Part shown: positions 9,987 to 33,153 of the stretch, piece after piece | Numbering within the stretch: the stretch's first letter is position 1 | Layout of the letters: each line of letters begins with the position of its first letter | Origin: Acidimicrobiia bacterium | GTDB lineage: Bacteria > Actinomycetota > Acidimicrobiia > Spongiisociales > ZC4RG35 | Assembly (NCBI GenBank): GCA_965215185.1 | Contig: OZ244034.1 | Location: forward strand, 1,874,244-1,938,243 | Length of the DNA: 64,000 nucleotides | Direction: 5' to 3' | Notes under the pieces: model-generated | What the model was told of the DNA's origin: nothing | The model's database searches: none | Seen by the model: the letters and a program-made list of their open reading frames with translations, nothing else | Made by a program: the position numbers and the translations under genes

Positions 9987-10059
9987 ACGATAACCCCTAG
10001 CCCGCGCCGTCGAAGAGGGACGATGGCGTCCCGCCCCCGGGCATCTTGTCTAATCTGGT

Positions 10060-17416: not shown

Positions 17417-18067
17417 ATGCAGCGGGAGATGTACCTGCTCCCCGAAGCAGCCCGCCTGCTTCGCATAAATACCACCACCCTGAAAAGATGGCTGGAAGGA
17501 GACGAGCGGCTCCCGCCCGTGATTCGTCCCCAAGCCACAGGATCCGACGCGGTGACCTGGGGAGAGTTTGTGGAAGCAGGTTTTCTGCGGGAATATCGTA
17601 GGTCCTTGAGCCTCCAGAGGATACGTCCCGCTATTGCGAAACTACGGGAAAAATTTGATGTGCCTTATCCCTTGGCGCATTACAAGCCCTTTATCGGACC
17701 AGGGCGCCATTTGACACTGGAGGCGCAACAGGAGGCACAAGTACCCCCAGATCTGTTCATCGTCTGGGAGATAGCAACAGGACAGTTGGCGCTCGCTGAT
17801 TCAGCCTTGGGCTACATCGAGAAAGTCGACTTTGCTGCAGAAGGCAGGCGTTGGGCAGAGCGTATTCATCCAGCGGGACGGGAATCCCCGGTAGTTATCG
17901 ATCCCGATTACTCGTTCGGAGCGCCAACCATCCGGGGCATCAAGACCTACATCATCACCGAACTCGTGGAAGCGGGTGAATCTCTGGAATTCGTAGCAGA
18001 GGGCTACTCGCTTTCGGTGGCTGAAATAGAAGCCGCGGTCGCTTATGAAGGGAAAGCCGCTGCCTAA
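17417..18067 (+). CDS. DUF433-domain protein with N-terminal HTH (putative antitoxin-like partner)
   Basis: C-terminal DPDYSFGAPTIRGIKTYIITELVEAGESLEFVAEGYSLSVAEIEAAVAY is DUF433-like. An HTH-like stretch (EAARLLRINTTTLKRWL). Low GC. Start could be the TTG at 17369. Confidence 0.55.
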   Translation: MQREMYLLPEAARLLRINTTTLKRWLEGDERLPPVIRPQATGSDAVTWGEFVEAGFLREYRRSLSLQRIRPAIAKLREKFDVPYPLAHYKPFIGPGRHLTLEAQQEAQVPPDLFIVWEIATGQLALADSALGYIEKVDFAAEGRRWAERIHPAGRESPVVIDPDYSFGAPTIRGIKTYIITELVEAGESLEFVAEGYSLSVAEIEAAVAYEGKAAA

Positions 18068-18095
18068 GAGAAAGCCGTCCACGGTCCGCTTCTAT

Positions 18096-18509
18096 ATGGA
18101 TGCTGACGTACTCGGTCTCGCCAAGGTCATTTCCAAAATCCGGCCTGATGTCACGTACCCGGGCGATCCGGGCGGGGAGATCAGAAAGCGGGTACGACCA
18201 CCCTGCCCGATCACCGATACTGAAACCACGGACCTCATATGGATCCCACAAGTCGCCCAGCGAGACTGGACCATCATCACCCGAGACCGGAATATTTCAC
18301 GAAAACCAGCGGAGCGCGATACCGTGATCGCTTACAACGCTAAGCTTTTTGTCTTTATTAAGCCCATCAATAAGAACTTTGATCTGTGGTCTCAACTGGA
18401 AGTCCTGATGACTCGATGGCGCGACATCGAACGACTCGGCGAAGAATCCGGGCCATTTATCTATAACGTCCATCGCACCACCGTCAATAGGGTCTGGCCA
18501 GCGGTTTAG
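18096..18509 (+). CDS. DUF5615 / PIN-like predicted nuclease (putative toxin partner of DUF433)
   Basis: MDADVLGLAKVI... start typical of DUF5615. Immediately downstream of the DUF433 gene. Low GC. Confidence 0.5.
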   Translation: MDADVLGLAKVISKIRPDVTYPGDPGGEIRKRVRPPCPITDTETTDLIWIPQVAQRDWTIITRDRNISRKPAERDTVIAYNAKLFVFIKPINKNFDLWSQLEVLMTRWRDIERLGEESGPFIYNVHRTTVNRVWPAV

Positions 18510-19097: not shown

Positions 19098-19940
19098 ATG
19101 AGCCTTCCCATCAACTTTCTCTCCGATTTTGGAACCGACGACGAATTCGTTGGCGTAGTTCACGGCGTTTTAGCCCGGATTGCTCCCCAGTCGCGGGTGA
19201 TCGACATCAACCATGGGATCGCGGCGGGGAGCGTACGGGCCGGCGCCCTTTCCCTGCTCCGCGCCGTTCAATACCTTCCCGCCGGAGTGACCCTGGCGGT
19301 GGTCGATCCCGGAGTGGGGACCGACCGCCGGGCCTTGGCCGTGGAAACCCTTGAGATGACTTTCGTCGGACCTGACAACGGCCTCCTCTCACCCGCGGTG
19401 GCCATGATGGGAGGAGCCCTTCAGATGGTCTCGATTGAAAACCCCGACTATCGCCTGCCGGGCGCCGGCAACACCTTCTGGGGACGGGATGTCTTTGCTC
19501 CCGCCGCCGGGTCGTTGGCGGCGGGAGAAGCGCGCCTGGCTGACCTTGGCCCTTCGCTCGGACCCCATGAAGTCACTCCCCTGCTACTGCCTCTGTCGGA
19601 AATAACCGCCGGCCGGGTGAGCGGTGAAGCCTGGTGGGTGGACACCTACGGCAACGTCCAAACCAACATCTCCCCAGACGACCTGCAGGTCGCCGGCCTG
19701 GAGACCTGCTCGGAGCTTGCGGTGCGATTGGGCGCCTCCGTCCACCACATTCGGATGGCAGAGACCTACGCCCAGGTGGGCAGGGGCGAGATGCTGATCC
19801 ATGTCGACTCGGCGGGGATGCTGGCCTTGGCGATGAGAGGAGGGCGGGCCTGTGACCGGCTGAGCCTCACCGAGGGGAGGTCAGTGGTCATGGAGAGAAC
19901 ATCAGTCCCCACAGTTGCACCACCGCCGCCACCACGATGA
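19098..19940 (+). CDS. S-adenosyl-L-methionine hydroxide adenosyltransferase (SAM hydrolase, fluorinase/DUF62 family)
   Basis: 280 aa. Motifs FLSDFGTDDEFVGVVHGV and WWVDTYGNVQTN characteristic of the SAM hydroxide adenosyltransferase fold. Confidence 0.75.
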   Translation: MSLPINFLSDFGTDDEFVGVVHGVLARIAPQSRVIDINHGIAAGSVRAGALSLLRAVQYLPAGVTLAVVDPGVGTDRRALAVETLEMTFVGPDNGLLSPAVAMMGGALQMVSIENPDYRLPGAGNTFWGRDVFAPAAGSLAAGEARLADLGPSLGPHEVTPLLLPLSEITAGRVSGEAWWVDTYGNVQTNISPDDLQVAGLETCSELAVRLGASVHHIRMAETYAQVGRGEMLIHVDSAGMLALAMRGGRACDRLSLTEGRSVVMERTSVPTVAPPPPPR

Positions 19941-20028
19941 TCAAGGCCAGGGCCACTATCACTATCGCGGTGCCGGGTCGCACTATGTCACTTCCAAGAA
20001 CGGGGACGGGAATTACCCAGGATATCCG

Positions 20029-20340
20029 ATGGCAGAGACGGCGGTGAGAAGCCGACGTCGCTACCTGGTGTTGTACACCCGCCCGCAGTGCCACCTGTGC
20101 GCGGTGGCGGAGCCTCGGGTGCGACGGGCCGCGATTCTGATAGGTATGGCGGTGCAAACAGTGAACATCGATGACCAGCCTGATCTGGCGGTCGACTACG
20201 GACTTAGGATCCCGGTGGTTGAGGGTTCAAACGGGGAGGTGTTGGCCGAGGGGCAGTTCAGCACTTGGCGGCTGTGGTCGGCGATCCTGCGAAGAAGGTG
20301 GGGTCCCAGATCCCGGCAGGCGGGTCCCGAGGCGGGTTGA
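20029..20340 (+). CDS. glutaredoxin-like / thioredoxin-fold protein (CxxC)
   Basis: Start reassigned to MAETAVRS. YTRPQCHLCAV CxxC motif. DUF836-like. Confidence 0.5.
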   Translation: MAETAVRSRRRYLVLYTRPQCHLCAVAEPRVRRAAILIGMAVQTVNIDDQPDLAVDYGLRIPVVEGSNGEVLAEGQFSTWRLWSAILRRRWGPRSRQAGPEAG

Positions 20341-20359: not shown

Positions 20360-21397
20360 CTATTCCGCCTCGGTCTCTGCGGTTTCGGCCTGGTCGGGCT
20401 CCCCGGTCCCCTCTTGCCCTCCTCCTTCACCTGGCGGCTCTTCGCCGACGATCAAGCCGCACTCCTGCAGAGTCTCATCGGGGTCGGCCCCTCCGAAGCG
20501 GATCCGCTCGAAGGCCACCACCGAGGCTATTTCCTCTGCGGTGTTGCTGGTGCCGAAGGCGGACATGAAGCCGCCTCCACCCACAGGTTTGGCCAGATCG
20601 CCATAGGTATCGATTCCCGCGTCCAGAAAACCCCCGGTGGCCAGAGTCACCCACTCTATGTGGTCCGAGCAACTGGAGAATGTGGATAGCACGGTGGCGA
20701 GCGCCGGCCCCACTCCCCCTTCGCCGTTGGCCCCATGACATCCCGCACAGGTCTCGAAAATCGCTTCCCCCACCACCAGAAATTCACCCGCCGGGTCTTC
20801 CGCCCGACCGGTGAATTCGCTGCCGTCGCAGTTGACCACCGTGGCATTGAGCCGATCGACCGCCAACTCCACACCTCCATCAACACAACCCGCCCGCGCC
20901 GAGTTCCCCGCCAGATACAGCAAACCGATAGTAGGTATCACCAGGAATAGGGCGGCGAGCCAACGAGGCAGACTGGATGAGGTTCTCTCGGTCAGGTGAG
21001 CGGTCGGCACCGACACCACCACCGGGAAAGAAACCGCTTCTTTGAGGGTGACCTCCGACGGCGTCGGCGGTGGGGCGGCCACGATGGGGACGGAGGGAAC
21101 AGGGGCAGCGGTGGGGATCGCCGGGGTAGGCGCCGTGGGAATCGCAACAGGCGGGGGGGTGGCAGGCGGGGTAGGCGCCATCGCCGCAGTTGCGGTGGGG
21201 GCGGCCGCAGTTGGCGCGGCGGGGGTGGGCGCAGAGGCCGGAGCGGAGGCTGCTGGAGCAGATCCGCCACCTGCCCAAGCCGCCAGAATCTCCTCGACGG
21301 GGACCCCGCTTGCGGCCGACCGCGCTTCGGCCGAGCGCTGGACTAAAACCTCCGGGGCGCCCATGGCTTCAGCCGCTCTGGCCAGATTTTCACTCAT
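20360..21397 (-). CDS. membrane-anchored monohaem cytochrome c with N-terminal cytoplasmic module and Ala/Pro-rich linker
   Basis: CAGCH haem motif. One TM (LPRWLAALFLVIPTIGLLYLAG). N-terminus MSENLARAAEAMGAPEVLVQRSAEARSAASGVPVEEILAAWAG is shared with the two neighbouring subunits. Confidence 0.7.
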   Translation of the reverse strand: MSENLARAAEAMGAPEVLVQRSAEARSAASGVPVEEILAAWAGGGSAPAASAPASAPTPAAPTAAAPTATAAMAPTPPATPPPVAIPTAPTPAIPTAAPVPSVPIVAAPPPTPSEVTLKEAVSFPVVVSVPTAHLTERTSSSLPRWLAALFLVIPTIGLLYLAGNSARAGCVDGGVELAVDRLNATVVNCDGSEFTGRAEDPAGEFLVVGEAIFETCAGCHGANGEGGVGPALATVLSTFSSCSDHIEWVTLATGGFLDAGIDTYGDLAKPVGGGGFMSAFGTSNTAEEIASVVAFERIRFGGADPDETLQECGLIVGEEPPGEGGGQEGTGEPDQAETAETEAE

Positions 21398-22220
21398 CGG
21401 ATCCGCCGTCGGTCAAGACTCGGGACTCCACCAGGTAAGCCACCAAAGAATCCATCGAACTGCCCCCGTAGGACAAATGCCCACCCTCACCCGAGAGCAC
21501 CGCTTGGATGTCGTCGGGCGCCATCCGGTTCCCTACATTGGCCAAGTCCGGGCCATAACGCTGCCGCCCGATCACTTGGTTGGAGTCGGACAGCGTCACC
21601 CCGCCCTGTCCCGCCAAGGCGGCCAATTGGGCGTCGGCAATTATGGGGCGGACCATTTGGGTATGGCAGGCCGCACACCCCTCCGCCAGATACTCGCCCT
21701 GACCCTGCAGAGCCATCTCACTATAGGGGATCTCGGAGTGGAGCACTCCCCTACCCAAACCCGAGATCGTGGGGACCACCAAGGTGATGGCCAGGCACAG
21801 GACCAACAGGGCGGCTGCGCCGAAGAAATACCGCAAAGGCCGATCCACCCGACCCGTCAAGATCGGGGGCGGTCCCTCGACCGTCGGGGCATAGACCACT
21901 ACCGGTCTCTGAGGAGGAGAGGATACCGTAGCCGCGACGGCGGCAGGAGCGGCTGCCGGGGCCTCAGAGGGTGCGGGAGTGGCAGCAGGTACGGGCGCAG
22001 GGCGTGCAACGGCAGGCTCGAGTTCGGCGCGGGCAGGCGACGGTGCGGGGGCGGCGGCAGGCGGTGCTTCAGGGGCGGGTTCCGGTCCCTGTCCCGCCCA
22101 AGCTCTCAGGATTTCTTCGACAGAGACGCCACTGGCGCTGGCCCGGGCTTCTGCGGAGCGTTGCACCAACTCGGTGGGAGCTCCCACGACCTGCGCGGCG
22201 GCCTCCAACAGCTCGCTCAT
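21390..22220 (-). CDS. membrane-anchored monohaem cytochrome c, paralogous N-terminal module
   Basis: CAACH haem motif. One TM. N-terminus MSELLEAAAQVVGAPTELVQRSAEARASASGVSVEEILRAWAG. ATGA overlap with the upstream membrane protein gene. Confidence 0.7.
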   Translation of the reverse strand: MSELLEAAAQVVGAPTELVQRSAEARASASGVSVEEILRAWAGQGPEPAPEAPPAAAPAPSPARAELEPAVARPAPVPAATPAPSEAPAAAPAAVAATVSSPPQRPVVVYAPTVEGPPPILTGRVDRPLRYFFGAAALLVLCLAITLVVPTISGLGRGVLHSEIPYSEMALQGQGEYLAEGCAACHTQMVRPIIADAQLAALAGQGGVTLSDSNQVIGRQRYGPDLANVGNRMAPDDIQAVLSGEGGHLSYGGSSMDSLVAYLVESRVLTDGGSDE

Positions 22221-23623
22221 TCTTCTTCCTCTTCCCGCATCTGAGATTCCGACGGTTCCGATCTGCCGGAATCGGCAGGTTCCTGGTCAGCGGCCAAGGC
22301 GAGAATCTCCTGGGCGGCCGGTCGTCCAGAGGTGAAGGTCCTCAACACCGCCAAACAGAAGGAGAGCTGACCTACCAGCGTCAGCAGACCCGACAGTATG
22401 GACAATCCCACCAGCAACGAGGCCATACCCACCAGACTCTCCCAACCATCCCCGGTGGGGCTGACACCGGTATAGGACCCTCCCGTCCAACCGTAACCCG
22501 ACATCAGTCCGGCGCCCACCAACAGGGCGGAAGTCAAGCCCACCCCCCAGAAGGTGAAGCGCAGATGAAGCTGGGCAAGCCCCACTCCGGCCATCTTCCG
22601 GCCAGTGATCGACGGAAGCGCCTGATACGACCAAGCCGCCACCAGCAGCCCGCCGGCTCCGAACAGGGCAGCGTAGAGCACACCGTCCCAAAACGGCGTG
22701 AGACCCACCACCGCCGCCGCGGAACGGACGGCGCCGAAGCTGGTCAAAGCCGCGGTCATCAAAGCGAAAAAGACACCCGCCAAGGCGGCCGCCACCACGG
22801 GACGCGTTCTTCGCTCCGCCCAGAACTGATCGGCGGTCAAGGCGAAGTTGGCGGCGTTGGCCAAAGCAGACACGGGAAGGGCGAGGGTCATCAGGAATGC
22901 CACCGCTTCCAACCAACCGGGAACCGGGCCGAAAACCAAGGGGGCGACTCCCGACCATGCCGACGCGAAAGCCAGCGACCAGAAACCCACTCTGGCCAAC
23001 TGCCGGCTGGCGAGAGGGTTTCCCGTCTCCTTCACCAAGGCGTAGTAGGCAAGCCCGATTCCCATTCCCACCACCCACAGGTTGGCGAGTCCAAACAGAG
23101 CGACCGACTCGGATAGGGCTCCACCCATCGCCGAGGACGCGGGAAGCGCCCCCACCAGATACAGCAACGGAAGCCACACCACCCCACCCATGGCATACCA
23201 CAAAGAAACATAGATATTGGGTTCTTGCCGATGCCGGACCGTAGAGATGGTGACCAACATCGGCGTCAGCAGGGTCAGGAACAACGGAAGGGCGACCCAC
23301 CAGGGAAGAGAGAAAGGACCCGTCCCATCTCCCCAACCCAACAACACCACTACCGCGCCCACCACGGTCACCAGGGCCGTGGCCACTCCCCCCGCCAATG
23401 CCAATCCTTCGCCGCGCAGGCGGGCGCCGGTGAGCCTGGGCAGCAAATAGTAGATTCCACCGACCAGCGACAGGGTCAACCAGCCCATCACGGCCAGCAG
23501 CAGGGCGATCGGGCGGATGCGACCGTAGGAGAAGGGCCCGGTCAGCGTCCCCGGGAACCGCAGTTCCACCATCGCCGCCACCCACACGACCCCGGCCAGG
23601 GCCAAAAAGGCGGTGGAGATCAC
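22217..23623 (-). CDS. polytopic (about 12-TM) integral membrane protein, unknown function, first gene of the cytochrome c operon
   Basis: 468 aa, highly hydrophobic, acidic C-terminal tail. YYLLPRLTGARL motif faintly like haem-copper oxidase subunit I, but only 2 His in the whole protein. Confidence 0.55.
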   Translation of the reverse strand: MISTAFLALAGVVWVAAMVELRFPGTLTGPFSYGRIRPIALLLAVMGWLTLSLVGGIYYLLPRLTGARLRGEGLALAGGVATALVTVVGAVVVLLGWGDGTGPFSLPWWVALPLFLTLLTPMLVTISTVRHRQEPNIYVSLWYAMGGVVWLPLLYLVGALPASSAMGGALSESVALFGLANLWVVGMGIGLAYYALVKETGNPLASRQLARVGFWSLAFASAWSGVAPLVFGPVPGWLEAVAFLMTLALPVSALANAANFALTADQFWAERRTRPVVAAALAGVFFALMTAALTSFGAVRSAAAVVGLTPFWDGVLYAALFGAGGLLVAAWSYQALPSITGRKMAGVGLAQLHLRFTFWGVGLTSALLVGAGLMSGYGWTGGSYTGVSPTGDGWESLVGMASLLVGLSILSGLLTLVGQLSFCLAVLRTFTSGRPAAQEILALAADQEPADSGRSEPSESQMREEEEE

Positions 23624-23938
23624 GATGTGCCATTTGGCAGCGGTATCAGAACCTAAGGTGTCCGACCACCCAGCGTAAGGCGCGACTCGCTTTTGCGGAT
23701 GTCCGACTTGATTATTCTTTGTCGTATTCAGAGCGCTACCCCCGGTGGCTCCGGAAATGAAAGGTTAGCCATGCTCGCCGCTCCAAAAGATAGCAAGAAA
23801 GAAACCCCACCGGGCGCAAGCGGCGCCGAGGGGCGTCAGGGCGGCCTTGGGATGAAAAAGGGTGCTAAGACTTTGTTTGAAGCACGTTCCGGTGTAAAAA
23901 TAGAAGTGCTTCGACCCCGGAAGGCCATCTGGTAAGAG

Positions 23939-24568
23939 ATGCACCGCCTCGCTTCTATAAGCTACCGAACAAGAATTCTCGTCGGTTGGTCGTCGCTATT
24001 GCTGGGAACAGGCCTCCTGGCGGTCGCCGTGCTGTGGATCCACTACTCGAAGCTGCCGCAGACCGAGATTGTCAACGGAGTGTCGACGGCGGTGGTGGTT
24101 GACTACTTCAACTGGATACCCCGAGGCTGGTTCTGGAAAAGCCTCGGTTATCTGGCCGCCCTGAGCGCCTCCCAGATGATGTTGGTGGGAGCGGCCTTCC
24201 TCTGGGTGCTTAACCAAAAGATGACCTGGGCGAGAGCGGCGTTTGCCGCCTTTTTGATCTGGATCGAGCTGGTGATGGTGTTCGGGATCGTTCCATCCGA
24301 GTGGCTGAACCTCTCTCAGACCGACCTGGACTGGTCGGGACAGCGGATCGCGTTACGGATCCCTCCGGCCTTGATGCTGGGCAACGAGGTCTCGATTAGT
24401 TGGGCGGCCATCAAAGACTCCATTTCAGGCGCCTACAACGTGGGAACGCTGGCCGCCGCCGGCGTCTTTGCCTACCTGCTCCAGCAGGTCTACAAGCCGC
24501 CCAAGAAGCAGGCCGCCAAGGTCAAAGTGTCACCCTATGGGCGGCCGCTGGTGAAGGGAGATCGTTGA
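23939..24568 (+). CDS. 4-TM membrane protein of unknown function, first gene of the bc-type operon
   Basis: 209 aa with four hydrophobic helices. Stop lies 1 bp before the ferredoxin start. Confidence 0.5.
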   Translation: MHRLASISYRTRILVGWSSLLLGTGLLAVAVLWIHYSKLPQTEIVNGVSTAVVVDYFNWIPRGWFWKSLGYLAALSASQMMLVGAAFLWVLNQKMTWARAAFAAFLIWIELVMVFGIVPSEWLNLSQTDLDWSGQRIALRIPPALMLGNEVSISWAAIKDSISGAYNVGTLAAAGVFAYLLQQVYKPPKKQAAKVKVSPYGRPLVKGDR

Positions 24569-24569
24569 G

Positions 24570-25019
24570 ATGCCCCGCGGTGTTGTGGACGAGACCCCGC
24601 CCTTTCGCGACGATTACCAGCTCACCCTGGTCGACAACAACTTCTATAACGGAAAGATCCGTCCCAAACAGTTTCTCCACATCGATCAGTCCGAATGCAT
24701 CCTTTGCGAGGGCTGTGTGGACATCTGCCCGTGGAAATGCATCTTTTATCTCTCCATGGAGGCCATCGACGAAGCGGTCAATGTCGACGATCCCCGCGAG
24801 GACCTCACCAACTATGGTTTCTTCGTTGTCGACGAGAACGAGTGCACCCGTTGCGCCCTGTGCATCGACCGCTGTCCCACCGGCGTCATCTCACTCGGCA
24901 AATTCGAAGGTTCTCTGGCCGCCCAGGCTGAAGAAATGGGGCTCAACTCGTCGCCCTGGGAGGTGGATACCGGCCAGAGGGACTTCAAACATGGCTATAC
25001 CTATGGAATGCGCTGGTAA
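24570..25019 (+). CDS. 2[4Fe-4S] dicluster ferredoxin-domain protein
   Basis: CILCEGCVDICP and CTRCALCIDRCP motifs. 149 aa. Confidence 0.75.
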   Translation: MPRGVVDETPPFRDDYQLTLVDNNFYNGKIRPKQFLHIDQSECILCEGCVDICPWKCIFYLSMEAIDEAVNVDDPREDLTNYGFFVVDENECTRCALCIDRCPTGVISLGKFEGSLAAQAEEMGLNSSPWEVDTGQRDFKHGYTYGMRW

Positions 25020-25029
25020 GGAGTGAAGC

Positions 25030-25818
25030 GTGAGTAGACAAAACGGCAAACAGGGCCTTTTGACCAAAGCCCGTACCCATGCGACCGGTTTGATGGGACG
25101 GGTCTGGTCCGGCCAGTTCATGGACTCGGTTCTGCGCCCCGGCTCCCCCTTCAAGAAGGGATACACCGACACTCCTCGTAACCGCTCCTATGTGATCATG
25201 AACAACGTGCTGTATCACCTCCATCCGGTGAAGGTGAAACGACACGGTGTGAAGCTCTCCTACACCCTGTGCCTGGGGGGGATGAGCTTTTTCCTGTTCA
25301 TTCTCCTGACCATCACCGGCATTTTCCTCATGTTCTATTACGCCCCCACCGCCGAGCGGGCCTACATAGATGTGCAGGCGCTGTCCACCGACATCGCGTT
25401 CGGCTCCCTGATGAGGAACATGCACCGATGGGGCGCCCATCTGATGGTGCTGACCGTGTTCCTCCACATGTCGAGAGTGTTTTACCACGGGGCTTACAAG
25501 CCGCCCCGCGAGTTCAACTGGATAGTGGGAGTCATCCTGTTGCTGTTGACCCTCCTCCTCTCCTTTACCGGGTATCTGCTTCCCTGGGACCAGTTGGCGC
25601 TGTGGGCCGTGACGGTGGGCAGCAACATGGCCGGCTTCGTTCCTGTCATAGGCGCGCAGGTGAAATTTGCCCTTTTGGGCGGAGTGGAGGTAACCGCGGG
25701 AACGCTTTTGCGATGGTATGTGCTCCACGTTCTCTTCCTGCCCTTCATCATCGTGATCTTCCTGGCAGTCCATTTCTGGAGAGTCCGCAAAGACGGCGGC
25801 ATCTCCGGCCCTCTCTAA
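25030..25818 (+). CDS. cytochrome b (N-terminal half, cytochrome b6-like) of a Rieske/cytochrome b complex
   Basis: Four TM helices. Bis-His haem ligands (HRWGAHLMV...H and HVLFLPF...H). 262 aa. Confidence 0.85.
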
Positions 25819-25837
25819 CCATGCAAGGTATGCGCTA

Positions 25838-26785
25838 GTGCCACAAATCCCTGAAGAACTGCTGAGACGCTCCGCCGAGGCGAAGGCCAAAGCGCTGGGT
25901 TTGCCGGTGGAACAGGTGCTGGCCGAGATGCGAGGGGAAGCTCCGGTCACCGAGATAGCCGCCGAGTCGGTGTCGGTGCCCGCTCCCCGCTTCGTTCCCA
26001 CCACAGCCCGCATCCCTGTTTCCGAGATGCCCCCCGACCCGCAGCCGCCCGACCCCGCCTCGGCGCCGCCGCCCGCCATCACGGCAGTGGACGAGGTGGA
26101 AGAAGCCCAAGCCGAAGTAGCCGAGACTCCCGCCGCTGAAGCCCCCACCGCTTCGGAACCGGGCGCGCCGGCCGGGGAGAACAGCGCCGGGAACGGACGG
26201 CTGGCGGCGGTCGTGTCGGTTCGACCCTCGGTGCCGCCCACCGACCTGCCCAAAGGCGTACGCCATCAACGACTGCTCACGGTGGTCAAAGCCCGAGCCA
26301 TCCAACAGGTAAAGGCCGATCCCACCGACAAGGTGAACACCTGGCCGCATCTGATGATCACCGAGTTCACCGCCCTCTTGGCGATGACCGCCTTTCTCCT
26401 GGTGCTCTCGGTCATCCTTCAGGCGCCTCTCCTGGAGTCGGCCAACTTCAACTCCACCCCCAACCCGTCCAAGGCGCCCTGGTACTTCTTGGGCCTGCAA
26501 GAGATGCTCTCCTACTTCGATCCGCAGATCGCCGGGGTGACCGTGCCGACGGTGATCGGGTTAGTGGGATTCATGATGATTCCCTACATAGACCGCAATC
26601 CCTCCACCCGCCCGTCGGACCGCAAACTGGCCATCATGCTTTACACCATCTTCCTGGCCGGGTCGGCGACCCTCACCATCCTGGGGGTGCTGTTCCGTGG
26701 CCCCGGGTTCAACTTCGTCTACCCATGGGTTGATGGGGTGTTCTTCGATGACCTGAAAGACTGGGTTGATTTTGGTGGGCACTGA
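25838..26785 (+). CDS. cytochrome b C-terminal half / subunit-IV-like protein with N-terminal cytoplasmic module and long Pro/Ala-rich linker
   Basis: PNPSKAPWYFLGLQEML, the PEWY-type motif of cytochrome b/PetD. N-terminus MPQIPEELLRRSAEAKAKALGLPVEQVLAEMRG matches the N-termini of the two cytochromes c. Confidence 0.75.
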   Translation: MPQIPEELLRRSAEAKAKALGLPVEQVLAEMRGEAPVTEIAAESVSVPAPRFVPTTARIPVSEMPPDPQPPDPASAPPPAITAVDEVEEAQAEVAETPAAEAPTASEPGAPAGENSAGNGRLAAVVSVRPSVPPTDLPKGVRHQRLLTVVKARAIQQVKADPTDKVNTWPHLMITEFTALLAMTAFLLVLSVILQAPLLESANFNSTPNPSKAPWYFLGLQEMLSYFDPQIAGVTVPTVIGLVGFMMIPYIDRNPSTRPSDRKLAIMLYTIFLAGSATLTILGVLFRGPGFNFVYPWVDGVFFDDLKDWVDFGGH

Positions 26786-26813
26786 TGGCCGTTAACTGGA
26801 TTCGGACGGCCTG

Positions 26814-27677
26814 ATGGGCGGCGTCGAACTGATCATCATCGGTGTGGCGGCGGTCGCCATCGCCGCCGCGGTGGGTGCCTTCACCATCGCCTTCCGCCGC
26901 GCCGAACCCGACCCCGCTTCTCTGTGGCCCAAGAAGCTGGAGCGTGGCGCCCGGAAAGCGGACCGTTCCACCTCCACCATGGAACTGGTGCTTACCACCG
27001 AGGCGGATGCTGTGGACGAGGACGAGGAAGTCGATGCACCAGAATACGAAGCCCCGGCCCCGGTGGCAGAGCGCTTGGCGCCCATCACCGAATCCCAGGT
27101 AATCGTTGAGGCGTCTGCAGAGGAGGTGGGGGTAACCCGCCGACAGTTCTTCAACCGGTCCCTGGCCGCCATGTCGGTGGCCTGGTTCGGGATCATGGGA
27201 ATCGAGATCCTGGCCTTCCTGTGGCCCAAGATCACCGGAGGATTCGGAAGCGACGTCGACGCCGGGAGCGCCGCCGACCTGGTTCCCGAGATGACCGACA
27301 CCGCGGGCCTGGTAACTCCGGCTTTCATCCCCGACGCCCGCGCCTACGTGGTACCGGCGCCCGTTGAGATGAGTCAGCAATTCGCTGGCAGAGATGTGGC
27401 GGCCGGAGGGCTGATGGCGCTCTACCAGCGGTGCGTCCACCTGGGATGCCGGGTGCCCTGGTGCGACGACTCCCAGGGCTTCGAATGTCCCTGCCACGGC
27501 TCCAAATACAACTCGGTCGGAGAGTATTTTGCTGGCCCCGCACCCCGAAATCTGGACCGTTTCTCGGTCCACGTCACCGACGATGGGCGTCTGATAATCA
27601 GGACCGGGGTTATAGTGGAAACCCCCCGGGCTAACGCTCAGTCTGTGTCATATCCGCAAGGCCCCTCCTGCATATAG
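26814..27677 (+). CDS. Rieske [2Fe-2S] iron-sulfur protein, Tat-dependent, with extra N-terminal TM helix
   Basis: Twin-arginine [13 protein letters not shown]. Rieske boxes CVHLGC and CPCHGS. 287 aa. Confidence 0.85.
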
Positions 27678-27687
27678 GGGAGATATT

Positions 27688-29394
27688 GTGGATTCCTCGC
27701 TAGTAATAACCCTGGTGGTGGTGGGAGCCGTAATCTGGCTCTCCTTTTTGGGAGTGGCCGCCCTGCGCTCCCGACGGCGGGAAGGAATCCCTCCCAACCA
27801 GGCGCCGGGCGTCACCGACGACGCTTTGGAAACCCGCCGCCTGGAACGTATCCAACAGGCCGCCGTCCTGCTGTCGGCCTTCCTGGCGGTGGGGCTGGCT
27901 GTTTACTACCTGAGCGAAACCGATCGACAGGAAAGCTTCGTGGACCAGTTCCACGAGGAGTCGGTGGAACGCGGCGCCGAACTGGTCGGGCCCGACGAGG
28001 CCGACTGCTGGAGTTGTCACGGCCCCAGCGGAGTGGGAGGTGTGGCCAGCTATGTGGAGAAGCGCACCGGGGTGAACGTGTCATGGTCGGCGCCTTCACT
28101 CGATGACATCTTCTTGCGTTATGACCGTGACATAATCACCTATTGGGTGACCTATGGGCGAGGCAACTCCCCCATGCCGCCGTGGGGCACGGTGGGAGGC
28201 GGTCCCATGAACGAACAACAGGTTTTCGACATCGTCAACTACCTGGAAAGTATCCAACTCTCTCAGCAGAACATCCTCCGCAAGGCCGACACCATCGTGG
28301 TGGGTCAGCTGAGTGTTCTGGAGAATGCCGACCAGGCCCTGGAAAAGGCCATTATCGAACAGCGCCAACTGATCGCCGACATCGAGGCGGCGCCCCGGTA
28401 CGCCGAGATGATGGCCAATCTGGTAGCGCTCGCCCGCCAGAGCCTGAATGGCTCGGACCGGGGGATCGATCGCGACGGTGACAACTTGTCGGACGTTTCA
28501 GAAGTGACGATCTCCCAACTGACCGCTGCCGCAGCGGCCCTGTTCGACATCAATCAGATCGAGGCTCTGACATTCGATCCGCAGAATCCCGCCACTGACG
28601 GCCGTCCCGACGCAGATGTAGCCGACCATGCCATCTCCCATCTGCAGGAGGTGGTGCCCCAGGTGCCGATTCTCGAGTTGCGCGTGCAGTCCATCAGAAC
28701 GGCGCTGCTGGCCGAGGACGAGGAGGACTCCGACGGTGACCAACTCTCCGATCGGGCGGAAAGAGTGCTAACCGCCGAACTGGCCATCGCCAGGACGGCG
28801 CTTCGCCCTAATACCTTGACAGTGGTGAACCTCGACCCGGAGCGTGCTTCTTCGGGTGGGGGAGTCAACGATGATCAAACCGCCGCCACCGCCGTCTCGG
28901 GTATGGAGGCCGCCGCCGTAAACCTGGCGGTACGAACCGAAAACGGCGAGCGGCTGCTCGGTCCGGCCCGGGCGGGACTGGAAGAGTTACTGGCCGCCCA
29001 GGAGCAGCGGAAATGGGAGATAGACCTGGAAGGCGTGGCCGCGGCCGCCTTCTTTGGAAATTCGGAGCAGGCCTCCCGGGCGGTCGGTGTGTTCACCGGG
29101 TATTGCGCGCGCTGCCACACTTCCGGCTGGTCGGCGGGGACCCCCTACGCTGCTCAACCCGGCTCGGGGGGATTCGGGCCGGCGCTTTGGAAGGGCCGAC
29201 CGCATGTTCAGTTCCTAAACAAGGAGAAACTGCGCTCCTTCCTGTTGGTGGGAGCGGTTGCGGACCGGCCTTACGGAGTGAACGGATTCGGAAATGGCCA
29301 GATGCCCGCCTTCGGGACGGTGCTCTCATCCGACGACCTGGACCTGCTGGTGGAGTACTTGTGGGCAGGGAATCTTAACGGCAAGGGAACCTAA
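27688..29394 (+). CDS. dihaem cytochrome c (QcrC-like), N-terminally membrane-anchored, with a about 300-aa inserted domain
   Basis: CWSCHG and CARCHT haem motifs at about residue 110 and 480. Two N-terminal TMs. Insert carries DRDGDNLSDVSE and DSDGDQLSDRAE loops. Confidence 0.75.
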   Translation: MDSSLVITLVVVGAVIWLSFLGVAALRSRRREGIPPNQAPGVTDDALETRRLERIQQAAVLLSAFLAVGLAVYYLSETDRQESFVDQFHEESVERGAELVGPDEADCWSCHGPSGVGGVASYVEKRTGVNVSWSAPSLDDIFLRYDRDIITYWVTYGRGNSPMPPWGTVGGGPMNEQQVFDIVNYLESIQLSQQNILRKADTIVVGQLSVLENADQALEKAIIEQRQLIADIEAAPRYAEMMANLVALARQSLNGSDRGIDRDGDNLSDVSEVTISQLTAAAAALFDINQIEALTFDPQNPATDGRPDADVADHAISHLQEVVPQVPILELRVQSIRTALLAEDEEDSDGDQLSDRAERVLTAELAIARTALRPNTLTVVNLDPERASSGGGVNDDQTAATAVSGMEAAAVNLAVRTENGERLLGPARAGLEELLAAQEQRKWEIDLEGVAAAAFFGNSEQASRAVGVFTGYCARCHTSGWSAGTPYAAQPGSGGFGPALWKGRPHVQFLNKEKLRSFLLVGAVADRPYGVNGFGNGQMPAFGTVLSSDDLDLLVEYLWAGNLNGKGT

Positions 29395-29397
29395 GTA

Positions 29398-29757
29398 ATG
29401 CGTGAACTGTTTCGCTCGCTGCTATCGGCCAACCTGTTCGTCACCGGGATCATCCTGCTGGTGACGGCGATCTTGGTCTTCTACGGCACCGTCTACCTTC
29501 TCAACTACACCAACCTAGGAAAGAAGCTGGCGTTCCTGGTGACCGGGGCCGGGATCTCGGCCTGGATGACCATAGGCAGCATGCTCTTCGTCCTCTACGC
29601 TCCCCGCGGCCCCCGCCCGGCCAACATCGAGGGACTCAACGCCTTCGAAGTGCGGATCATCCCCATCACTTTCACAGTGGTCTCGGCCGTTCTTTTCATC
29701 GGATTCCTGGTAGCCCTCCACCAATACGAAGAAGCCCGAGAAAAAGCCGACCTTTAA
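29398..29757 (+). CDS. small 3-TM membrane protein (putative accessory subunit)
   Basis: 119 aa. Start 4 bp after the cytochrome c stop. Confidence 0.45.
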   Translation: MRELFRSLLSANLFVTGIILLVTAILVFYGTVYLLNYTNLGKKLAFLVTGAGISAWMTIGSMLFVLYAPRGPRPANIEGLNAFEVRIIPITFTVVSAVLFIGFLVALHQYEEAREKADL

Positions 29758-29875
29758 GGCCCCGGCATTAAGCCGACCCAAGGGGCATCCCTGATCGCAA
29801 AGCCTCAAACGGCCCCTCTTTCACATTAAGCTCTGGCGAATGGTCTCTGCTAGACGGTCCTTTCGTGCCCGGCGC

Positions 29876-31186
29876 ATGGGACGCGCATCGCACGGCAGAC
29901 TGCTGATCGCCTTGGCGCTATTCGGACTGCTGACCGCTTCCTGTAGCGGGTCCGCGCCAACCGAGCACCTCGGTGACGGCTCCCTGGGATTCGTGGAGGT
30001 GGAGCGGGGTGAGACCATCCAAATTCGATCCGTATACACCAATCCCGGAGATATCGCCCTGTTGGGCAACTCCGCGGAGAAGGCGATCGTGTTCGCCGTG
30101 GAGGACTACGGCCCCATCCGCGGGTACGATGTTGACCTCGGCGTGGGACTCGATGACATGTGTTCCCCCGAAGGAGGAATGATTACCGGCTCACTGGTCA
30201 TCGCCGAGGGGAACGTGCTGGGCGTGATCGGCACCAACTGTTCGGCGGCGGCCGCCGAGGCGGCGCCGCTCATCACCAGTGCGGGCATGGTCTTGATCTC
30301 CCCATCCAACACCGCCCCGTCACTCACTTCGGATCTGGCCGGCAACGAGGGCAGCAGTCACTTCCCCGGCTACTACCGAACCGCCCACAACGATCTGATT
30401 CAAGGCGAATCCGTGGCGCATTTCCTGTTCGGAGAGGGTGTCTCTACCGCGGCCGTCGTTCACGACGGCGGCCCCTATACGATGGGGTTGGCTTCGGCCT
30501 TCTCCAACGCATTCGAGGAACACGGCGGCGCCATCACCGGTACTTGGGAAGTGGACCGCAGAGAGCAGGATCTGGTCCCGGTTCTCACCGAGATAGCCGC
30601 CGGTGAGCCAGAAGCCCTGTTCTTCCCGCTTTTCTTCCCGACCGGCGGTTTCTTGGTGAAGCAGGCAGCTGAGATGCCTGCCTTTTCGGAGACGGTGTTC
30701 GCCGCCGCCGACGGTCTGCTCAACGATGATTTTCTATCGGTGCCCGAAACCGAGGGCATGTTTATCTCCGGTCCCGATACCCGTTTCGGAGACAACTACA
30801 ACCAAAGCACCGGACAGAGCGCCGCCGACCTGCTGGCACGCTATCAGGAGACGGTGGGCTCGGCTCCCACCGGCACATTCTGGGGCCACGCCTACGACGC
30901 CACCACCCTGCTCTTGGACGCCATTAACGCCTCCTCTTACCTGCGCTCCGGAGGCAACACCCTGGTGATAGATCGGGCCGGACTACGCCAATACCTCGAC
31001 AACCTGTCCGGCTTCCAAGGAGTGACCGGGATTCTCAGCTGCGACCAATTCGGAGACTGCGGCACCTCCCGGGTGGTGATCCACGAACACCTGGATTCCA
31101 CCAATATCGAAGCCACCAGGCAGAGCGTGGTCTTCGAAGTCGGACCCGACGGTCAACAGACACCGGCTTCGCTCACCGGACACTAA
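29876..31186 (+). CDS. ABC transporter substrate-binding lipoprotein, PBP type I (branched-chain amino acid-binding family)
   Basis: Lipobox LLTASC. LivK-like periplasmic-binding fold. The upstream part of the ORF (from 29840) is likely non-coding. Confidence 0.7.
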   Translation: MGRASHGRLLIALALFGLLTASCSGSAPTEHLGDGSLGFVEVERGETIQIRSVYTNPGDIALLGNSAEKAIVFAVEDYGPIRGYDVDLGVGLDDMCSPEGGMITGSLVIAEGNVLGVIGTNCSAAAAEAAPLITSAGMVLISPSNTAPSLTSDLAGNEGSSHFPGYYRTAHNDLIQGESVAHFLFGEGVSTAAVVHDGGPYTMGLASAFSNAFEEHGGAITGTWEVDRREQDLVPVLTEIAAGEPEALFFPLFFPTGGFLVKQAAEMPAFSETVFAAADGLLNDDFLSVPETEGMFISGPDTRFGDNYNQSTGQSAADLLARYQETVGSAPTGTFWGHAYDATTLLLDAINASSYLRSGGNTLVIDRAGLRQYLDNLSGFQGVTGILSCDQFGDCGTSRVVIHEHLDSTNIEATRQSVVFEVGPDGQQTPASLTGH

Positions 31187-31293: not shown

Positions 31294-31364
31294 CTTGAGG
31301 TAGGCCTACCTCTCGCCCTCAAGTAGGCCTACCCTTCGTCCTCAAATAGGTCTACCCCTCGTCC
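31294..31364. repeat. three tandem about 23-bp repeats, each carrying palindrome GTAGGCCTAC and the flotillin stop-codon context
   Basis: cttgaggtaggcctacctctcgccc, tcaagtaggcctacccttcgtcc, tcaaataggtctacccctcgtcc. The third unit overlaps the actual flotillin stop. Sits between convergent genes. Confidence 0.8.
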
Positions 31365-32650
31365 TCCGGCGAGTCTTGGGAACTGCGGCGTAGCGAGTCG
31401 AGGATGTCGACGCCGGTAACAGCGTCTATCTGTTCGGTTAGGGCCACCAAAGCAGCGGGGAGTTGGGCAACCAGGCCGGGGATCCCTCCTCCACCGCTGC
31501 CCCGGTCGCTGTTGGTGTCCACCACGGCCACCCGGTCGATGTTGACCCCCTGCACGGTGGCGACGATCTTGTCTATGAGTTCGGGAAGCATGTTCAACAC
31601 CAGCACGTGATGCCCGTCCTGGCCCGCCGCCTGGTATTGGTCGGTCAGGAGTTTGAACACTTCCACTTGGGCTCTACCGTCTTCAATGATGCTCGCCGCT
31701 TCGGCCCGGGCTCGTAGCTGTTGGGCTTCCAAGTCGGCTCGGGCGGGAACCACCACCGCCGCCTCCACGCGTCGTGTCTCCAGCTCGATGCGCTGGCCTT
31801 CCAACTCCTGACTGGCCACGACTCTGGCGACATCTCCCGCCACCAGAGCTTCCGCCTCACGTGCGTTAGAGACGGCCTCCAGTTCGGCGGTACGTACCCG
31901 CAGGCCGTTGTTTTCCACCACGATCGCCCTGTCCGCCTCAAGGCCAGCGACCTGTCCCACTTGCCGGGAGGCAGCCTCGGCCTGTTCCGCTTCGGCTTTG
32001 CGTTCTGCTTCCACCACCCGGGCATTTCGAATCACCTCGGCGGTGAGAAGGCGCCCCACCGATGTCAGATAATGGACATCGTCGGTGACGTTCTGGATCT
32101 TGAGGACATCCAGTTCCAGGCCCAAGGTCTTGATGTCGTCGTCGGCCTCGTCGATCAACTGATGGGAGAATTTGAGCCGATCTTCGTTCACCTCTTCCGG
32201 CGACAGGGTGGCTAGGACGCCCCTCAGGTTGGCTTCCAGGGTCTCCTTGGCGATCTGACCGATCTGGGCGCTGGAACGCCCCAGGAATCTCTCGGCAGCG
32301 TTCTCCAGCAGCCCTTCTCGGCTCGAAACCTTGACGTTGGCAATGCCCGCCACATTGAGAGGAATAGTCCCCCGCGAATAGGCGTTGGTCACCGCAACCT
32401 CCAACGGAATGGTGTTCAGACTCATCCACTGAACATTCTCGATGAGGGGAATCCGGATCGTCCGTCCTCCCTGCAGCAGGCGGTATCCCACCTTTCGCCC
32501 ATCACTCAGCGCCCGTTTCCGTCCGGAAATGACCGCTACCCGGTTGGGTGGGCAAATAATTATCAACGACTTAATGATGAAGATCAGGATCAACAACACC
32601 ACGGCCAGGCCGACACCGGCTAACACCGGTAAACTTAAGTTATCACTCAT
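31352..32650 (-). CDS. flotillin-like SPFH/band-7 domain protein
   Basis: N-terminal TM, SPFH domain, extended Ala/Glu-rich coiled-coil. 432 aa. Confidence 0.8.
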   Translation of the reverse strand: MSDNLSLPVLAGVGLAVVLLILIFIIKSLIIICPPNRVAVISGRKRALSDGRKVGYRLLQGGRTIRIPLIENVQWMSLNTIPLEVAVTNAYSRGTIPLNVAGIANVKVSSREGLLENAAERFLGRSSAQIGQIAKETLEANLRGVLATLSPEEVNEDRLKFSHQLIDEADDDIKTLGLELDVLKIQNVTDDVHYLTSVGRLLTAEVIRNARVVEAERKAEAEQAEAASRQVGQVAGLEADRAIVVENNGLRVRTAELEAVSNAREAEALVAGDVARVVASQELEGQRIELETRRVEAAVVVPARADLEAQQLRARAEAASIIEDGRAQVEVFKLLTDQYQAAGQDGHHVLVLNMLPELIDKIVATVQGVNIDRVAVVDTNSDRGSGGGGIPGLVAQLPAALVALTEQIDAVTGVDILDSLRRSSQDSPEDEG

Positions 32651-33153
32651 TAACTACTTCCTCTTTCTTTTTCTTGCCTTGCGACGAGAGCCACCGCGCC
32701 GTCCACCTCCACGATGGTGACCCTCTCGCCTTTCTTAATCAGATCCTCCCGGTTGGCGGGTGAGGCGCTGATCCTATGGCGCGCCCCGGCCGCGTCGACA
32801 ACTACCTGCCCCCTGTGTTCGGTGGACACTCCCAACACCACTACGGCTGTTGACCCCTCAAGATCTGCATTGGTAACCTCGCTGGACGCTTCGGTGCGGC
32901 GCAGCCAACCAAACAGAGCGTTGTGGAAAGATGCTCCCAGAACACCCACTCCGGCGGCGATCAATCCCCCGGAAAGAGCGGAAAGGCTCACCCAGACCGT
33001 GATAAGACCCGCTAAACCAAAAAACGCCGCTCCAAAAGAGACAGCGCTGAACGAGATCCATGAAAAGAAACCTCCACCCGAACCGGTATCAGAATCCCCC
33101 CCCAATTCGCCTCCGAAGGCAAAAATCAGCAACAACGGCAAACCGACCGCCAT
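32650..33153 (-). CDS. NfeD-like membrane protein (flotillin-associated, OB-fold C-terminus)
   Basis: Two TMs plus a beta-rich C-terminal domain. Overlaps the flotillin start, the typical NfeD-flotillin operon arrangement. Confidence 0.65.
   Translation of the reverse strand: MAVGLPLLLIFAFGGELGGDSDTGSGGGFFSWISFSAVSFGAAFFGLAGLITVWVSLSALSGGLIAAGVGVLGASFHNALFGWLRRTEASSEVTNADLEGSTAVVVLGVSTEHRGQVVVDAAGARHRISASPANREDLIKKGERVTIVEVDGAVALVARQEKERGSS

Follow-up and report, generated by a model that had tools for sequence, protein, structure and literature searches.

A b6-type Rieske/cytochrome b operon encoded back to back with a ligand-less cbb3 derivative in Acidimicrobiia

Why would a bacterium keep a cytochrome oxidase subunit that has lost every one of its metal ligands, and why would this protein be encoded back to back with a Rieske/cytochrome b complex whose operon includes a ferredoxin? 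The question is raised by a ten-gene island in a 64,000-nucleotide stretch from an Acidimicrobiia bacterium (GenBank assembly GCA_965215185.1, contig OZ244034.1, positions 1,874,244 to 1,938,243 of the forward strand). We refer to this whole stretch as the window, and give all coordinates as positions within it. The island occupies 20360-29757 and, according to a scan of open reading frames (ORFs) and their translations, consists of two divergent operons: m3, m2 and m1 on the minus strand and p1 to p7 on the plus strand (Table 1). Purifying selection acts on all ten genes, whose ratios of non-synonymous to synonymous substitution (dN/dS) are 0.03-0.17, computed against ten close relatives at dS ~0.7-1.3.

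On balance, we favour the explanation that the island encodes the complex III of Acidimicrobiia, a b6c-type enzyme with a 2[4Fe-4S] subunit on the cytoplasmic (n) side, joined by a catalytically dead cbb3 scaffold that would relay electrons. Such an island probably defines the respiration of a widespread, mostly uncultured group found in marine and soil habitats and possibly associated with sponges.

The CcoN-like protein and its two cytochromes c

On homology, the minus operon is a derivative of a cbb3 oxidase, with m3, m2 and m1 corresponding to CcoN, CcoO and CcoP, respectively. A preliminary description of the locus had not seen this relationship. The m3 protein matches Pfam COX1 (2.6e-25), yet it reaches only 106 bits against the TIGR ccoN model, for which the cutoff is 583. 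CcoN has six conserved histidines, of which two bind the low-spin haem b, one the high-spin haem b3 and three CuB. When m3 is aligned with the CcoN of Rhodobacter capsulatus (chain 6xkw_n, from the bc1-cbb3 supercomplex), all six are found to be replaced or deleted. The haem b histidine of the second transmembrane (TM) helix is Ala40, the first CuB histidine is lost to a deletion between W183 and V184, the HH pair for CuB is Ala227-Pro228, and the HxH pair for haem b3 and haem b is represented by Val315 and Tyr317. Only two histidines occur in the whole protein, and neither is conserved.

The same holds across the family. Among 120 homologues of m3 (39-98% identity), the ligand columns are almost entirely occupied by residues other than histidine: four columns contain none at all, and the other two contain it in one and three sequences. 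Total histidine content ranges from 0 to 8 per protein, with one family member having none. Further, across 81 orthologues none of the positions conserved at 90% or more is a His, Met, Cys or Lys. Despite these losses the protein is not decaying, as its dN/dS of 0.14 indicates purifying selection and its fold is predicted to be retained. AlphaFold2 (AF2) gives a confident 12-helix model (pLDDT 85.6, pTM 0.86), and a Foldseek search with this model returns CcoN chains as all of the best matches (9g83_t, 8smr_E and 3mk7), with TM-scores of 0.79-0.81 at 18-22% identity. The model thus keeps the 12-TM fold of CcoN.

The two cytochromes have also departed from their counterparts. True CcoP is a dihaem protein, and CcoO is monohaem with His/Met ligation. 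The m2 protein, which matches Pfam FixO (3.2e-12), is composed of an N-terminal module, a linker, one TM helix and a single CAACH motif that is invariant in 51 of 51 orthologues. It aligns with residues 43-122 of CcoO from Pseudomonas stutzeri; the next match, at 181-192, is weak and below significance, leaving 123-180 unmatched. We take this last segment of CcoO to be the carrier of the methionine axial ligand, and it appears to be missing from m2. A short replacement loop contains His248, conserved at 0.98, which is a possible substitute axial ligand. The m1 protein begins with the same kind of module, of 44 residues, followed by a linker rich in proline and alanine, one TM helix (~142-167) and a class I cytochrome c domain on the outer (p) side. 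It is weakly CcoP-like (Pfam Cytochrom_C 1.2e-5 and Cytochrome_CBB3 4.4e-5; 13 bits against the TIGR ccoP cutoff of 180) and has a single CXXCH, which is invariant in 58 orthologues together with Met278. Four more invariant cysteines (residues 171, 190, 243 and 313) lie in the outer-face domain of m1; they might pair up as two disulfides or serve as ligands of a further metal.

Could the minus operon nonetheless encode a working cbb3-type oxygen or nitric oxide reductase? Databases name m3 homologues 'cbb3-type cytochrome c oxidase subunit I', the COX1 and FixO matches agree with that name, and cbb3 oxidases have been counted among genome bins from an acid mine drainage site that includes Acidimicrobiia (PMC8357290). 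Against this stand the absence of all six ligands with no conserved alternative, and the low ccoN score. Because the CcoN ligands are gone, the CcoP-like protein is monohaem and the CcoO-like protein appears to be without its methionine segment, we conclude from the residues present that the operon cannot encode a haem-copper reductase of O2 or NO, and we find the annotated function barely credible.

The consequences extend beyond one genome. An exhaustive profile search of 1.84 billion representative sequences returned 184 matches below 1e-30. The top 150 matches (representatives at 50% identity) included 116 full-length proteins. In 73 of these not one of the five ligand histidines that the alignment allows to be scored is retained, while 29 are canonical and 14 partial; canonical CcoN appeared only below ~200 bits. 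With 73 of the 116 representatives lacking all five scorable histidines, the mis-annotation is not confined to this genome. Annotation pipelines label m3-like proteins as oxidase subunits, and metagenome studies take cbb3 genes as a sign of high-affinity, microaerobic respiration. For the m3 family the oxidase annotation is almost certainly wrong, and for this lineage the inference of microaerobic respiration is very likely false. We found no description of a ligand-less CcoN family, or of the operon architecture reported here, in the open-access literature; the main text of a 2024 survey of haem-copper oxidoreductases (PMC11214002) presents new families with altered active sites and none without an active site. 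If our reading is correct, a large family has been overlooked under the name of cbb3 oxidase. It would also be a striking pseudoenzyme of the respiratory chain, in which every cofactor has been lost while purifying selection has been kept.

The Rieske/cytochrome b operon and its added subunits

Judged by its motifs, the plus operon encodes a b6-type complex of the APWY clade of cytochromes b. We assign it there because it has the APWY motif and the split form, and because its b6-like protein scores above the cutoff of the ExtP model. This protein, p3, matches Pfam Cytochrome_B (4.8e-48) and is encoded on a separate ORF from p4, which matches Cytochrom_B_C (1.4e-7). It aligns end to end with cyanobacterial cytochrome b6, its best match among solved structures (a PDB cytochrome b6, 2.4e-48), and the four haem b histidines (132, 146, 233 and 248) are invariant in 69 orthologues. 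The cysteine of the CxGG motif is the attachment site of haem ci (or cn) in b6f complexes. The p3 motif, LCLGG, lines up with YCLGG in b6 and is unchanged in 68-69 of the 69 orthologues; a haem ci on Cys81 is probable.

The subunit IV-like p4 has the N-terminal module, an acidic and proline-rich linker and three TM helices; its N-terminal extension, which includes the module, measures ~165 residues. The Qo motif is neither the PEWY of b6f nor the PDWY of Firmicutes, but APWY, within a KAPWYF that is invariant in 58 of 58 orthologues. The Rieske protein p5 (Pfam Rieske 3.7e-8; best NCBIfam match b6f PetC) has an internal twin-arginine translocation (Tat) motif, RRQFFNR, behind an extra N-terminal helix. 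Its cluster-binding boxes, CVHLGC and CPCHGSKY, are b6f-like and, as with the Tat motif, are invariant in 60-61 of 61 orthologues. Finally, the cytochrome c p6 has two N-terminal TM helices and the haem motifs CWSCH and CARCH (Pfam Cytochrome_CBB3 and Cytochrom_C); both CXXCH motifs and both methionine ligands are invariant. Between its haem domains lies an insert of ~270 residues with two DxDGDxLSDxxE loops. These loops (residues 260-272 and 347-358), in which the acidic residues are invariant or nearly so in 39 orthologues, resemble calcium-binding loops of the EF-hand or thrombospondin type, on the outer face of the membrane.

Actinobacterial bcc complexes have an unsplit QcrB of ~540 residues, a dihaem QcrC of ~250-280 residues and a QcrA with three TM helices. 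The products of p3 to p6 are not of this kind, as the corresponding NCBIfam models score far below their cutoffs (QcrB_actin 114 vs 500 bits, QcrC_actin 17.8 vs 200, QcrA_actin 34 vs 275). The preliminary description was therefore right that the layout departs from canonical qcrCAB, the cytochrome b being split. It had further held that a split b6/subunit IV pair in this setting matches no described layout; this part goes too far, since the Qo motif places the pair in the APWY clade of Kao and Hunte (2014; PMC4122944). There are nevertheless likenesses to the actinobacterial bcc-aa3 system (QcrCAB with CtaCDEF): the phylum, a dihaem c in place of a soluble cytochrome c, an extra Rieske TM helix before the Tat motif, and, putatively, the logic of an obligate supercomplex. 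The differences lie in the split cytochrome b, the ferredoxin and the neighbouring partner, which is a cbb3 derivative rather than aa3.

The APWY clade of split cytochromes b, of which no member had been characterised at the time, comprises delta-Proteobacteria (Geobacter), Chloroflexi, Nitrospirales, Planctomycetes, Symbiobacterium/Thermaerobacter and deep Actinobacteria including Ilumatobacter coccineum (Acidimicrobidae); whether its CxGG binds haem was left open (PMC4122944). The clade is probably the same as subfamily G of Dibrova et al. (2013, 2017), including Geobacter ExtOPQ. The short cytochromes b of that subfamily are accompanied by large cytoplasmic oxidoreductase subunits of the Fe-S/NAD(P) kind, anammox bacteria being an example (PMC5600118). 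Our locus resembles the clade in that the b6-like and subunit IV-like proteins have a gene each, APWY stands where PEWY would be, and the CxGG motif and a Rieske gene in the operon are present. It differs in having LCLGG where the clade usually has WCMGG. Moreover, cytochrome b sequence alone served to define the clade, and the sections of these papers that deal with it do not describe p1, the ferredoxin, the 568-residue dihaem c, p7 or a divergent operon for a dead cbb3. In short, there are precedents for the cytochrome b lineage and for an Fe-S partner on the n-side, while this particular set of subunits is without one in the open-access literature.

Automatic annotation would name p3 ExtP, which is its best NCBIfam model (305 bits, cutoff 290). 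The ext cluster of Geobacter (extHIJKLMNOPQS) combines a cytochrome b/membrane protein/Rieske trio with multihaem cytochromes, a porin and a rhodanese (PMC5877670), and has no ferredoxin. No other ext genes occur in the window or in the related loci considered below, and p4 falls below the ExtQ cutoff (60 vs 150 bits); we rejected the name as misleading.

Structural parallels are also offered by the b6c complexes of Firmicutes and heliobacteria and by cyanobacterial b6f, with which our operon has in common a four-helix b6 with CxGG and a subunit IV of three helices; its Rieske protein is nearest to PetC, and a dihaem cytochrome c is common to our operon and the heliobacterial b6c. Unlike either, the operon has APWY, an additional 2[4Fe-4S] subunit predicted to be cytoplasmic, and two membrane subunits without a known family. 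It differs further by the extension of subunit IV, and by being without small subunits of the PetG/L/M/N type.

The ferredoxin-like p2 matches Pfam Fer4 families, and its closest named relatives are NuoI/NdhI and modules of the FwdF type or of polyferredoxins. Nine cysteines are invariant, as are an N-terminal tail, VVDETPPxRDDYQ, and a C-terminal one, RDFKxGYxYGMRW. Its dN/dS of 0.039 compares with 0.033 for b6, and its homologues among the matches listed are at least 70% identical. Because it has neither a signal peptide nor a TM helix, p2 is predicted to lie on the cytoplasmic side, and we infer that it is a fixed subunit of that face, near the Qi/haem ci side. A similar arrangement is found in the complexes of the anammox bacterium Kuenenia, in which a short cytochrome b is accompanied by an Fe-S protein from the same operon that is thought to exchange electrons with cytoplasmic carriers on the n-side (PMC5600118). 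In contrast to those complexes, our locus comes from an actinobacterium, belongs to a family of loci adjoining nuo and Rex genes, has a small ferredoxin of 149 residues without an NAD(P) or flavin domain, and is not accompanied by a multihaem partner resembling hydroxylamine oxidoreductase.

The two small membrane subunits are lineage-specific or without a family. Neither Pfam nor NCBIfam holds a match for p1, although it has 845 homologue clusters; those that are listed with a name are 'hypothetical', and their taxa, where given, are mostly Acidimicrobiia. Its p-side loop VPSEWLxxxQTDLDWS does not vary, and neither does the C-terminal SPYGRP. In the AF2 model (pLDDT 79.7), which has no informative fold match, four helices are accompanied by two hairpins on the outer face. 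The p7 protein is very conserved (dN/dS 0.053), with orthologues in all complete loci including remote ones, and has no Pfam or NCBIfam family; Pfam returned nothing credible at E-values up to 10.

A probable single complex from two operons

Using a profile of the CcoN-like protein, we found relatives in 173 species genomes, and compared the best 80 loci by tblastn with the ten window proteins. These loci are titled Acidimicrobiia, or are metagenome-assembled genomes that are unclassified or assigned to Actinomycetota, with the exception of about a dozen titled Acidobacteriota. The full divergent ten-gene layout is present in every one of the 80 loci with a long enough contig, down to 39% identity in CcoN. 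The preliminary description had named as evidence against its reading that the operons might never be conserved together; in each of the 80 loci with a long enough contig, and in the more distant L081, L085 and L091 described below, both are kept.

More distant relatives preserve the association through gene fusions. The profile search yielded 30 ligand-less CcoN-like proteins of at least 600 residues, and of ten such long forms that were scanned, eight are fusions of the CcoN-like protein with a FixO haem c and two with a cupredoxin. In the FixO-fusion loci (L081/L082, L085 and L091), the fusion gene and a CcoP-like gene diverge from a set made up of a p1-like gene, the ferredoxin, b6, subunit IV, Rieske, dihaem c and a p7-like gene. 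The CcoN-like proteins of L081, L085 and L091 are ~30% identical to that of the window, while p2 and p3 are 71-78% identical (p2 71-73%). A Rex gene and a nuo operon adjoin these loci, with the exception that nuo was not seen on the shorter L091 contig. In the cupredoxin-fusion loci (L086 and L083), the fusion gene follows ResB/C cytochrome c biogenesis genes and lies directly upstream of a COX2-cytochrome c gene and a genuine COX1. L086 also has a gene for a ResA-like thioredoxin, and its ferredoxin-b6 operon is divergent next door.

A second line of evidence is the N-terminal module. A hidden Markov model (HMM) built from 155 module sequences (consensus MSELLAAAAAALGIPEALVQRSAEARAKATGVSVEEVLAAWAGG) matches only the m1, m2 and p4 ORFs in the window, and exactly the three corresponding ORFs in 54 of the 80 loci, the remainder being mostly truncated contigs. 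This agrees with the preliminary description, which had proposed such a module, and places it on proteins of either operon. Pfam searches at E-values up to 10 gave no credible match for it. In L081 and L085, subunit IV has 3-4 tandem copies and the CcoP-like protein has one; CcoO is there fused behind CcoN and has no free N-terminus. Because the N-termini of CcoO and subunit IV are cytoplasmic in solved complexes, all copies should lie on the n-side, the same side as predicted for p2. Besides synteny, the module is the best indication within these sequences that the products of both operons meet, and we infer that they associate physically.

Physically coupled bc1-cbb3 supercomplexes of Proteobacteria (R. 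capsulatus 6xkw; Pseudomonas aeruginosa 8smr and 9g83) lend support to such an arrangement, as they too join a Rieske/cytochrome b complex to a CcoN/CcoO/CcoP unit, and the m3 model superposes on them with a TM-score of ~0.80. They differ in that their CcoN is working, with haem b, b3 and CuB, and their CcoP dihaem, where our locus has a ligand-less CcoN, a monohaem CcoP-like protein and a truncated CcoO-like protein. The two gene sets lie side by side in our locus, an arrangement that is not usual in Proteobacteria.

We therefore propose the following for the explanation favoured above. The plus operon would encode a quinol:cytochrome c oxidoreductase of the b6c type, with the Rieske protein, b6 (bL, bH and a probable ci) and subunit IV, to which p1, p7 and p2 have been added and in which the dihaem p6 would be a membrane-anchored, high-potential exit. 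The minus operon would encode a cofactor-less scaffold of CcoN fold, holding two monohaem c-type cytochromes at the outer face, and the two units would most likely form one supercomplex that the module helps to hold together. Quinol would be oxidised at the APWY-type Qo site, the first electron passing from the Rieske cluster to the dihaem cytochrome and on to the two c-haems of the scaffold. In this role the dead cbb3 module may be a relay or docking adaptor between the dihaem cytochrome and a true aa3 or caa3 oxidase encoded elsewhere. We suggest an adaptor because the cupredoxin-fusion loci put ligand-less CcoN beside caa3 genes; its relatives, further, are typically paired or fused with a FixO haem c or a cupredoxin. 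The second electron would travel via bL and bH towards Qi and haem ci, where the ferredoxin may be a structural relic, may inject electrons from cytoplasmic donors or may accept them in a bifurcating mode. The claim of the preliminary description that the locus forms a joint respiratory unit is supported by co-conservation and the common module, whereas the supercomplex itself is deduced from these two features.

Several observations weigh against this explanation. Searches with the caa3 genes of L086 and L083 found no aa3-type COX1 or COX2, either in the window or in sequence flanking the 80 loci; the electron acceptor of the adaptor model is thus assumed for these genomes. The apparent loss of the methionine segment means that the redox potential and function of m2 may differ from those of a simple relay. 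Kao and Hunte proposed that the APWY clade may run in reverse (PMC4122944), which would give the other direction of electron flow. Finally, pairing with the b6 operon is not universal, as a forest-soil contig (L087; ena:ERZ1760244, positions 1-10900) has a ligand-less CcoN and FixO pair without a b6 operon nearby. This last case suggests that other electron-transfer systems, too, have taken up dead CcoN scaffolds. The L087 pair adjoins genes for a multihaem cytochrome of 871 residues, a cNMP-binding polyferredoxin, an FHA-domain flavoprotein and CcmE, and a nuo operon.

L087 is also among the points in favour of regarding the operons as functionally separate, with only a regulatory region in common: the CcoNOP-like proteins would anchor cytochromes c for some other donor or acceptor, and the b6 complex would act alone. 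A divergent arrangement is by itself no proof of a complex, and the CcoN-like protein evolves much faster than b6 and the ferredoxin (~30% vs 75% identity in remote loci). We consider such independence distinctly unlikely, given that the 44-residue module occurs solely on subunits from both operons, that adjacency persists from 98% to ~30% identity and through gene fusions, and that L086 clusters the b6 operon, a CcoN-cupredoxin fusion and caa3 genes. The main rival, which is compatible with a supercomplex, is that the ferredoxin makes the enzyme something other than a plain complex III. In a bifurcating version, as proposed for the Rieske/cytochrome b complexes of anammox bacteria, one quinol electron would go to the c-haems and the other via bL, bH and ci into the [4Fe-4S] clusters and a low-potential cytoplasmic acceptor; in a reverse version, reduced ferredoxin or NAD(P)H would feed the Qi site to reduce quinone. 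The invariant tails of p2, which suggest fixed docking, fit an active ferredoxin, as do its conservation to the level of b6, the conserved CLGG site for haem ci, and the serine and tyrosine of Rieske box II, which are typical of high-potential clusters such as that of b6f. In addition, APWY has a proline in place of the proton-accepting glutamate, a feature linked to reverse operation (PMC4122944), and the cytoplasmic Fe-S/NAD(P) subunits of other short cytochromes b provide a precedent (PMC5600118). We nevertheless regard this role as rather unlikely: the operon has no NAD(P)- or flavin-binding subunit, no genes for a lithotrophic donor are linked to it, and the presence of the locus throughout the 80 loci and its position beside nuo and Rex fit a housekeeping, forward-running complex.

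Two bolder readings are that the ferredoxin is hard-wired on the n-side next to haem ci, and that m3 is the first cofactor-free member of the haem-copper superfamily kept as a structural or relay subunit. We offer both tentatively, as possible though doubtful. If the former is true, a low-potential Fe-S chain and the Qi site could exchange electrons without an intermediary, providing, according to direction, either a natural, non-photosynthetic example of the long-debated ferredoxin:quinone route through a b6f-type complex or a Qo-driven bifurcation to ferredoxin. An APWY-type complex with a conserved cytoplasmic ferredoxin is a tractable system for asking whether haem ci exchanges electrons with n-side Fe-S clusters, and whether APWY signifies reverse operation. 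The former bears on cyclic electron flow through b6f as well as on the bifurcation proposed for anammox. Repeated fusion of ligand-less CcoN to haem c and cupredoxin carriers, meanwhile, illustrates how scaffolds of supercomplexes can arise from dead enzymes.

Gene layout and neighbouring genes

The layout given in the preliminary description proved accurate. All ten ORFs and the tight plus operon were found, with gaps of 1, 10, 19, 28, 10 and 3 bp in order, and translational coupling of the minus genes is seen in their overlaps, which are ATGA for m3/m2 and 8 bp for m2/m1 (ATGAGTGA). Pfam and NCBIfam HMM searches and motif checks recovered every cofactor motif it had named, and agreed with its 2[4Fe-4S] ferredoxin, split b6/subunit IV, Tat-dependent Rieske protein and dihaem p6. 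Its helix counts likewise match a hydropathy scan and the AF2 models, which give no TM helix for p2, two for p6 and the numbers stated above or in Table 1 for the rest. Gene callers differ by 11 codons on the start of m3.

Table 1. Features of the island and its surroundings, as positions in the window (aa, amino acids)
Feature	Position	Strand	Length	Description
m1	20360-21397	-	345 aa	CcoP-like monohaem cytochrome c, 1 TM
m1 haem motif	20735-20749	-		CAGCH
m1 shared N-terminal module	21266-21397	-		module HMM match
m2	21390-22220	-	276 aa	CcoO-like (FixO) monohaem cytochrome c, 1 TM
m2 haem motif	21663-21677	-		CAACH
m2 shared N-terminal module	22089-22220	-		module HMM match
m3	22217-23623	-	468 aa	CcoN-like, ~12 TM, haem-copper oxidase superfamily, without metal ligands
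Divergent intergenic region	23624-23938		315 bp	presumably holds both promoters
p1	23939-24568	+	209 aa	lineage-specific 4-TM subunit
p2	24570-25019	+	149 aa	2[4Fe-4S] ferredoxin-like subunit
p2 cysteine motifs	24696-24728, 24843-24875	+		
p3	25030-25818	+	262 aa	cytochrome b6, 4 TM
p3 Cys81	25270-25272	+		probable haem ci attachment site
p4	25838-26785	+	315 aa	subunit IV-like, 3 TM
p4 shared N-terminal module	25838-25945	+		module HMM match
p4 Qo motif	26474-26485	+		APWY
p5	26814-27677	+	287 aa	Rieske [2Fe-2S] protein, 2 TM
p6	27688-29394	+	568 aa	dihaem cytochrome c
p6 insert loops	28465-28500, 28726-28761	+		DxDGDxLSDxxE
p7	29398-29757	+	119 aa	small 3-TM subunit
DUF433 and PIN-like genes	17369-18509			overlapping pair
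SAM_HAT_N/C and DUF836 genes	19098-20340			beyond m1
Solute-binding protein gene	29840-31186			beyond p7
SPFH/Band 7 and NfeD-like genes	31352-33153			overlapping pair
Class A beta-lactamase-family gene	33361-34197			

The region between the operons contains two blocks that are conserved at the nucleotide level in close relatives, one near 23771-23820 and the other formed by the last ~60 bp before p1. Comparison among relatives revealed no conserved reading frame within it. A 54-codon ORF at 23771-23935, upstream of p1, is called as a gene in one assembly, and we rejected it as coding: relatives keep only its ends, stops and shifts break the frame, and distant loci show no conservation. One assembly calls a 102-residue gene in the same region, and its frame is likewise broken in relatives. 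The 23771-23935 segment is probably a conserved 5' untranslated region or promoter sequence rather than coding. A scan for sigma-70 promoters and terminators gave no consensus site and nothing informative in this region. We also looked for the Rex operator TGTGAA-N6-TTCACA, because a Rex gene adjoins the locus in distant relatives; allowing three mismatches, the window has 8 matches where 14 are expected by chance, and none is near the locus.

In distant relatives (L016, L024, L042 and L066, at positions ~1700-3700; L081, L085 and L091), the gene beyond p7 encodes a Rex-type repressor (Put_DNA-bind_N and CoA_binding), and a geranylgeranyl-reductase-like flavoprotein gene and the nuo operon are near one end of the island or the other. 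The solute-binding protein gene takes the place of Rex in the window. None of the genes flanking the island in the window is respiratory; they encode the toxin-antitoxin-like pair, the SAM hydroxide adenosyltransferase, the glutaredoxin-like, solute-binding, SPFH/NfeD and beta-lactamase-family proteins of Table 1, and ABC transporters. The genes for SAM hydroxide adenosyltransferase and for the glutaredoxin-like DUF836 protein recur beside the island in 60 and 46 loci of the 80, respectively, and the former is also near the cluster in L081, L085 and L092. Their proximity may reflect backbone synteny or a functional link, perhaps in thiol redox. The DUF433 gene and the PIN-like gene that overlaps it have no tblastn match in related loci, and look like a type II toxin-antitoxin system inserted near the island. 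The SPFH/NfeD pair and the beta-lactamase-family gene are common only to the closest relatives of the window.

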